Of a stretch of DNA of 64,000 bases, positions 19,391-19,572 are shown in pieces. Source of the DNA: Escherichia coli (GTDB lineage: Bacteria > Pseudomonadota > Gammaproteobacteria > Enterobacterales > Enterobacteriaceae); the NCBI RefSeq assembly GCF_013122565.1, contig NZ_CP053258.1; one strand, 5' to 3'. Within the stretch, counting starts at the first letter, position 1. Every line of letters starts with the position of its first letter. The position numbers were made by a program, and so were the translations under genes. The notes below the pieces were generated by a model that worked only from the letters and a program-made list of their open reading frames with translations, ran no database searches and was not told the DNA's origin.

Positions 19391-19572
19391 AAGTTTCCCT
19401 CTAACCGACATTAAAATTGATGCGTAATTATTTGTTTCGCCTTAAAGAAATGCAAACAACTTCCATCAAAAAAGTGATACAAGATCGATAACATAGCGTT
19501 GAAGAAAAGGATTTGATAATCCGCAAAATTTGCACAACACTGCCTGTAATACTTCCTGAACCAGAGACGATC

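Follow-up and report, generated by a model that had tools for sequence, protein, structure and literature searches.

Absence of the pgrR–ycjY cassette from the mppA–mpaA spacer of an Escherichia coli strain and its probable loss between 30-bp direct repeats

The DNA considered here (the window, i.e., the whole stretch of 64,000 nucleotides that was analysed) is collinear with K-12 1,355,000–1,404,900 in reverse orientation with 96.8–99.2% identity and is therefore a segment of an E. coli chromosome; the complete-genome collection contains no close relative of the strain, the best match being 98.6% identical locally and 96.8% identical over 23.6 kb. The part of the window dealt with in this study contains a small cluster of genes for the recycling of murein peptides, organised as follows.

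17777–19390, minus strand: mppA, murein tripeptide ABC transporter substrate-binding protein, intact, 537 aa (open reading frame listing and full-length tblastn)
19391–19572: mppA–mpaA spacer, divergent, 182 bp, 35.7% G+C, its length and motifs matching those of 76 other Enterobacteriaceae species
19573–20301, plus strand: mpaA, murein tripeptide amidase, intact, 242 aa (tblastn and annotation of matching genes)
20276–21241, minus strand: ycjG, L-Ala-D/L-Glu epimerase (tblastn, 98% over 321 aa)

The start codon of mppA is the CAT at 19388–19390 (minus strand) and its product can be aligned to K-12 MppA from end to end, the identity of the gene being indicated also by the way in which RefSeq annotates its counterparts in K-12 and in strain CP131. 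mpaA begins with the ATG at 19573–19575, whereas ycjG is convergent with mpaA and overlaps its 3′ end (20301). The same mppA–mpaA–ycjG arrangement, with the first two genes divergent, is found in nearly all of 80 loci. The original prediction, made from the sequence alone, had placed about 180 bp of AT-rich DNA between mppA and mpaA; this proved accurate, the 182 bp having a G+C content of 35.7% compared to 51.1% for the whole window. The compact spacer is thus a structural fact in which chance plays no role.

The same prediction had placed pgrR, ycjY and the small ymjC and ymjD genes between mppA and mpaA in K-12, and the MG1655 record bears this out: the order is mpaA < ymjC < ymjD < ycjY | pgrR > mppA and the two start codons are separated by 2628 bp, so that K-12 is far from being equally compact. 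The K-12 locus (mppA–pgrR–ycjY–ymjD–ymjC–mpaA; b1326–b1329) has the same flanking genes in the same orientation as the window, with 98.3–98.6% DNA identity, and the 87 bp proximal to mppA and the 125 bp proximal to mpaA are kept in both; the difference consists of 2446 extra bp, comprising the cassette and a second copy of a 30-bp repeat, that K-12 has between window positions 19477 and 19478. Neither tblastn nor blastn found a match to pgrR, ycjY or the short-chain dehydrogenase/reductase (SDR) gene of the cassette anywhere in the 64-kb window, as had been anticipated for the pgrR/ycjY block, and blastn of the 3.95-kb full cassette against the window returned zero matches. The sole match to the pgrR query is a LysR paralogue, 27% identical, at 8659–9060. 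Unlike K-12, the window therefore has no pgrR between mppA and mpaA, no ycjY operon co-directional with and upstream of mpaA, and neither the ycjY promoter nor the PgrR operator; the latter is placed inside the cassette because PgrR, which represses itself, binds the pgrR/ycjY spacer (PMC5934670, PMC10505187).

What remains between the two start codons can be described in terms of two conserved elements.

19427–19456, minus strand: predicted sigma-70-type mppA promoter, with −35 TTTGCA (19456–19451) and −10 AATAAT (19432–19427)
19508–19545, plus strand: mpaA-proximal conserved segment GGATTTGATAA ... TTTGCACAACACTGCC, candidate mpaA promoter or operator (77-spacer conservation profile)

A consensus promoter scan of the spacer calls a single site, that of mppA, compared to a mean of 0.6 in shuffled sequences; since the scan is no better than the shuffles, the call was used only in combination with conservation. 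Indeed, both hexamers of the presumptive mppA promoter, the −35 of which falls inside the 30-bp repeat, coincide with columns conserved in at least 80–95% of 77 aligned spacers, and the motifs GTAATTATTTGTTT, AAATGCAAA, GGATTTGATAA and TTTGCACAACACTGCC, conserved to the same extent, are all present in the spacer of the window. On the mpaA side, TTGATA at 19513–19518 might serve as a −35 element and AACACT at 19536–19541 as a weak −10, an assignment made by eye and uncalled by the scan. The possibility that GGCAGTGTTGTGCAA, read on the minus strand, is sigma-54-like was rejected by eye, the GG–GC spacing being one base too short, and an Rfam scan of 19200–19800 (E ≤ 1) yielded no match, i.e., no known RNA element in the spacer. 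The original prediction had supposed that mppA and mpaA would be controlled differently from one compact bidirectional promoter. As the 87 bp upstream of mppA and the 125 bp upstream of mpaA that cassette-bearing strains have kept include these promoter-like motifs, the compact and the cassette layout probably have their core promoters in common.

Which of the two layouts is the unusual one? The mppA–mpaA locus is present in 5418 of 5426 complete E. coli genomes. The cassette occurs in 5243 of the 5426 (96.6%), essentially once in each, with identical junctions across at least phylogroups A, B2 and E, whereas the compact layout, defined by a single alignment spanning mppA, spacer and mpaA, is found in 173. 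The cassette-bearing and the compact genomes, together with 8 without the locus, account for 5424 of the 5426, a tally which suggests, by proxy, that there is no room for a second location of the cassette in compact E. coli. The opposite distribution is seen in the rest of the family: compact spacers of 138–316 bp (mode 182–185 bp) are present in 76 other Enterobacteriaceae species, including Citrobacter, Enterobacter, Klebsiella, Kluyvera, Leclercia, Pluralibacter, E. albertii and E. whittamii, and the nearest sister lineage of E. coli, MOD1-EC7003, is also compact; outside E. coli, among the Enterobacteriaceae sampled, the cassette was found only in Escherichia sp. E1V33. These comparisons indicate that the compact layout is ancestral and normal for Enterobacteriaceae and that the K-12 layout is derived; K-12, rather than the window, would therefore be the oddity. 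With its 182 bp the window fits the ancestral enterobacterial cluster (spacer of about 140–320 bp) and resembles the compact cluster of other Enterobacteriaceae and of E. coli IAI39, CE10 and ST648, in which mppA and mpaA diverge from an approximately 182-bp spacer having the same motifs and ycjG is convergent. The compact alleles of E. coli comprise about 160 that carry GG at the position of a diagnostic dinucleotide described below, mostly from phylogroup F (ST648, CE10, IAI39 and others), and about 14 that carry AT, the latter occurring on at least three other flank backgrounds.

The presence/absence polymorphism of the cassette is already visible in annotated RefSeq genomes (IAI39, CE10, ST648); what is added here are the exact 30-bp direct-repeat boundaries, the evidence for recurrent repeat-mediated loss, and the view of PgrR–mpaA control as a lineage-specific by-product of an insertion. 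Nothing on the layout of the mppA–mpaA locus is contained in PMC3173086 or PMC10622912.

The boundaries of the indel were obtained, as the original prediction had proposed, by alignment with K-12, which disclosed the direct repeats that had been thought worth looking for.

19448–19477: 30-bp repeat AAATGCAAACAACTTCCATCAAAAAAGTGA, in single copy (overlap of the blastn alignments to K-12)
19465–19466: AT dinucleotide, a derived state, marking the mppA-side repeat copy of cassette-bearing E. coli (alignments)

In K-12 the 30-mer is present twice, in direct orientation and 2446 bp apart, and in the window once (blastn), so that 19448–19477 is either an empty site or a deletion scar and the position of the cassette is between 19477 and 19478. 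A cassette bounded by the repeat at these same boundaries is found in O157:H7, ST131, A34, EH53, 47-1826, 23AR0151, VREC0864, O145 and Escherichia sp. E1V33; altogether, 10 cassette-bearing genomes have two copies compared to the single one of the window. The 90-bp junction at 19418–19507 recurs without any change in 9 complete genomes of E. coli, and many others have a nearly identical one. This bears directly on the suspicion that the cassette might have been collapsed or lost across the 30-bp repeats during assembly, a suspicion that has nothing in its favor other than the repeats flanking the missing segment: a normal assembly would not collapse 2.4–4 kb of unique DNA across repeats as short as 30 bp, and the compact junction has been obtained in 173 complete genomes from many laboratories, including the 9 identical to the window over 90 bp. 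An artefact of this kind can be given a practically negligible probability.

The DNA that is absent from the window exists in E. coli in three forms. The full cassette consists of pgrR facing ycjY, a gene for a second alpha/beta hydrolase and a gene for an SDR/NAD(P)-binding oxidoreductase; strain 47-1826 has an intact copy of it and O157 PA20 a frameshifted one. The ST131 form is without the second hydrolase, and the K-12 form, having two internal deletions, is also without most of the SDR gene, ymjD and ymjC being the remnants. In the complete E. coli genomes the full form accounts for about 24% (1282 genomes), that without the second hydrolase for about 30% and the K-12 type for about 43%, and from these three nested deletion grades the locus is visibly eroding. 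The deletion that truncates the K-12 SDR gene ends within 0–2 nt of the left edge of the right 30-bp repeat, with a microhomology of only 1–2 nt, and K-12 ymjC (1390680–1390862 in the MG1655 record) reads through the deletion junction (1390723) into the right repeat.

The cassette has a G+C content of 44.7% compared to 54.4% for mpaA–ycjG, and homologues of YcjY with 81–88% identity occur in Rhizobium, Agrobacterium, Sphingobium, Burkholderia and Pluralibacter. A collinear set of genes, with a LysR regulator gene facing hydrolase–hydrolase–SDR, is carried by the 216-kb Rhizobium replicon CP004016.1, where the proteins are 74% (PgrR), 84% (YcjY), 63% (second hydrolase) and 66% (SDR) identical to those of E. 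coli; in Pluralibacter gergoviae the collinear regulator and both hydrolases, 79–83% identical, occupy an unrelated chromosomal site. Because of the low G+C content and of the collinear Rhizobium plasmid cassette and P. gergoviae locus, the K-12 block is regarded as foreign, being a horizontally spread unit having its own LysR regulator. Both relatives (PgrR 74–79%, YcjY 83–84%, second hydrolase 63–81%, SDR 66%) lie in another genomic context and are relevant to the window only insofar as they represent the likely kind of source for the DNA that it does not have.

Three observations concern the surroundings of the cassette. In the Rhizobium replicon (locus record L101, 1561–10948) it lies in a mobile context, between an IS21 pair (transposase and IstB) and three consecutive tyrosine-recombinase genes. 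A 75-bp fragment of epoxyqueuosine reductase (queH), annotated by RefSeq, is found in the pgrR–mppA part of the cassette in some strains (2162–2236 of L096, 618–692 of L097 and 6525–6599 of L093) and may be a remnant of an earlier genomic context. Finally, Escherichia sp. E1V33 (L007, ~4560–6906; 5000–7307 of the K-12 reverse-strand locus) carries a K-12-type cassette segment that is 97–99% identical and has both K-12 internal deletions, while its flanks and the first ~140 bp of the cassette are only 85–92% identical, a mosaic that indicates an interspecies replacement by recombination.

The original prediction had left open whether the strain lost the regulator or never acquired it. The alternative was well framed: the compact layout being also the ancestral one, structure alone does not separate the two possibilities. 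In the balance between them, loss now appears the likelier, and the argument, of moderate strength, rests mainly on a 2-nt signature. Among the cassette-bearing E. coli sampled, the mppA-side (left) repeat copy has AT at the positions corresponding to 19465–19466 in all 7 in which this copy was recovered, whereas the mpaA-side (right) copy has GG in 8 of 9 cassette-bearing genomes. GG is also found in MOD1-EC7003, E69, E. albertii and E. whittamii, GT being found in one species, so that the single-copy sites of five other Escherichia species read CCGGC, with one CCGTC. The copy in the window reads CCATC and in this agrees with all the left copies recovered from cassette-bearing E. coli. From this pattern AT is a derived state tied to the cassette-bearing allele, and it is on account of this mark that the lineage of the window is more readily explained by loss than by its never having acquired the cassette. 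The phylogroup-F compact sites, on the other hand, have GG (GA in IAI39), unlike the window.

The flanks can be interrogated in a similar manner. Compact alleles occur on several unrelated flank haplotypes, the nearest relative of which is often cassette-bearing (window and 47-1826, PT62 and O157, CP131 and K-12), and the haplotype of the window is most similar to those of cassette-bearing genomes, the phylogroup-F compact alleles being the most distant; these nearest neighbours were determined from the right flank, the left flank having lost most sequences as several loci start inside mppA or pgrR. An opposing sign comes from position 19490, where the window keeps an ancestral A and most of the sampled cassette-bearing alleles have G, and recombination blurs the histories of the flanks. 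A suitable parental allele does exist, however, since the right repeat and flank of the cassette-bearing O145 strain RM12275 are identical to those of the window, including both AT and the A at 19490.

It is against these data that a lineage which never received the cassette, and which simply kept the original enterobacterial spacer, has to be weighed. Such a history would account for the length of the spacer, which is 182 bp also in E. albertii, E. whittamii, Escherichia sp. MOD1-EC7003 and others and is compact in 76 species, as well as for the A at 19490; moreover, the approximately 160 phylogroup-F-type compact sites, which share an identical core (GG, A) with the sister species, could be truly ancestral. 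It would not account for AT instead of GG at 19465–19466, nor for flanks of the E. coli type whose closest haplotypes bear the cassette, and it sits uneasily with a cassette whose junctions are the same in almost the entire species. For the window, retention of the ancestral state is accordingly judged rather unlikely.

That the cassette can be lost is demonstrated by strains closely related to K-12. CP131, PM7 and NH-21 have no cassette, are identical to K-12 over 1010 bp on the left and differ from it at 3–5 of 2380 bp on the right; their junction consists of the K-12 left flank and left repeat joined to the K-12 right flank, exactly as predicted for a deletion between the repeats, and, relative to K-12, their compact alleles nest within a cassette-bearing lineage. 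Loss of the cassette is thus recurrent in E. coli.

The lineage of the window is likely to have once had the cassette and to have lost it through a precise deletion between the 30-bp direct repeats. Recombination or replication slippage between the two flanking repeats would remove the cassette and leave a single copy (19448–19477), restoring the exact 182-bp divergent spacer of the ancestor, and AT would pass into the compact product if the crossover fell within the last 11 bp of the repeats. Precise deletions between short direct repeats are well known in E. coli from the classical lacI and plasmid studies, in which they arise by RecA-independent slipped-strand or short-homology events. The window resembles them in that a segment and one copy of the 30-bp repeat are missing and the junction is the predicted product, and K-12 and CP131/PM7 constitute a near-isogenic pair for such a deletion. 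The case differs from classical slippage in that 2.4–4 kb between 30-bp repeats is a long distance and that only the product is seen here; given this distance, a rare RecA-dependent exchange is equally possible.

The deletion could also have occurred in some other strain, the window having acquired its compact allele by homologous import from a donor. The exact 90-bp junction of the window is present in the 9 genomes on at least two flank backgrounds (the SCU-172/MS 21-1 group and the PT62/ET201 group), the flanks look mosaic, E. coli recombines freely, and the E1V33 cassette documents transfer across species at this very locus. Yet no donor-like tract can be delimited, and the flanks of the window are no closer to compact than to cassette-bearing alleles. 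An import of this sort, which would alter only the place of the deletion and not the nature of the allele, is considered improbable.

Two further mechanisms were entertained and discarded. Excision as a transposon, an insertion sequence or a site-specific islet finds no counterpart in the E. coli cassette, which carries no transposase or recombinase gene (only the LysR regulator, the two alpha/beta hydrolases and the SDR), nor in the spacer of the window, where the repeat search revealed, apart from an imperfect 12-nt direct pair at chance level, only a palindrome at the start of mpaA, the latter being the only inverted repeat; a 30-bp duplication is not known to be typical of any insertion sequence. 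Movement of the cassette as a circle via the 30-bp site was considered in the light of the E1V33 mosaic, of which one end is near the right repeat but the other ~140 bp inside the cassette; the idea was not adopted, as ordinary homologous replacement explains this mosaic.

What would be the consequences of a deletion between the repeats for the expression of the flanking genes? PgrR is credited with the control of ycjY–ymjDC–mpaA, ycjG and ycjXF–tyrR (PMC5934670, PMC10505187), and repression of mpaA, ycjG and ycjXF–tyrR in K-12 belongs to the regulon described in PMC5934670. The deletion would remove at once the PgrR repressor, its operator between pgrR and ycjY, and the ycjY promoter, which in K-12 drives the ycjY–ymjD–ymjC–mpaA transcript; any read-through from pgrR into mppA would be lost as well. 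mppA and mpaA would be left on their own conserved back-to-back promoters without PgrR input, as in Citrobacter, Enterobacter and other Escherichia, and expression in the window should resemble that of other enterobacteria rather than that of K-12.

The wiring of K-12, in which PgrR acts on mpaA via the ycjY operon, would accordingly be specific to cassette-bearing E. coli instead of general: it is absent in about 3% of complete E. coli, including clinical phylogroup-F lineages such as ST648, and in the other Enterobacteriaceae sampled. Since this wiring is specific to the cassette, K-12 regulatory models of the recycling of peptidoglycan peptides would not be transferable to such strains. Taken by itself the feature of the window is real but ordinary and matters little; the locus offers, at any rate, a natural example of an islet without mobility genes that is bounded by short repeats, eroded stepwise and repeatedly lost.

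A more ambitious reading can be put forward, the whole of which we regard as distinctly unlikely: PgrR would be the resident LysR regulator of an acquired hydrolase/oxidoreductase cassette that put mpaA under foreign control by accident, and this rewiring would be reversible through the repeats, the window and phylogroup F having reverted. The cassette may have inserted centrally into the conserved mppA–mpaA control region, the insertion being accompanied by a 30-bp duplication. The acquired-cassette part of this reading is well supported, whereas reversible switching and adaptive loss are speculative; were the reading true, reversion could possibly have a selectable effect on murein-tripeptide scavenging.

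The mppA–mpaA spacer was found to be occupied by other DNA in two instances. In Salmonella enterica subsp. arizonae/diarizonae (L025, 4449–6677, and L027) it contains an islet of 3.1–3.4 kb with genes for CdtA/C, an endonuclease/exonuclease/phosphatase domain protein (CdtB-like) and again CdtA/C, i.e., a cytolethal-distending-toxin operon, the boundaries of which have no flanking repeats, and in E. coli NH-21, K-12-like and cassette-free, the compact spacer harbors an IS1 (3354–4051 of L092). With a cdt islet and an IS1 at the same spacer, the latter seems to tolerate insertions.

Elsewhere in the window, the IS5F that K-12 has between ynaI and ynaJ is absent at 16574–16577, where the alignments abut with a 4-bp overlap. 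Compared to K-12 and to most of the loci examined, the window has a 2.2-kb insertion between tpx and tyrR (21858–24099) with an open reading frame on the plus strand (21964–24060, 698 aa), whose product has no Pfam, NCBIfam or PADLOC match; in a minority of E. coli, e.g., VREC0864 and A34, RefSeq annotates it as a "hypothetical protein". The adjoining segment 24100–49725, which comprises tyrR, ycjX/F, the ycjM–W sugar cluster, psp and puu, is 96.8% identical to K-12 compared to 98.2–99.2% for its neighbours, and the best complete-genome match of 20400–44000 also reaches only 96.8%, so that 24100–49725 appears to represent a divergent haplotype or an under-sampled lineage.
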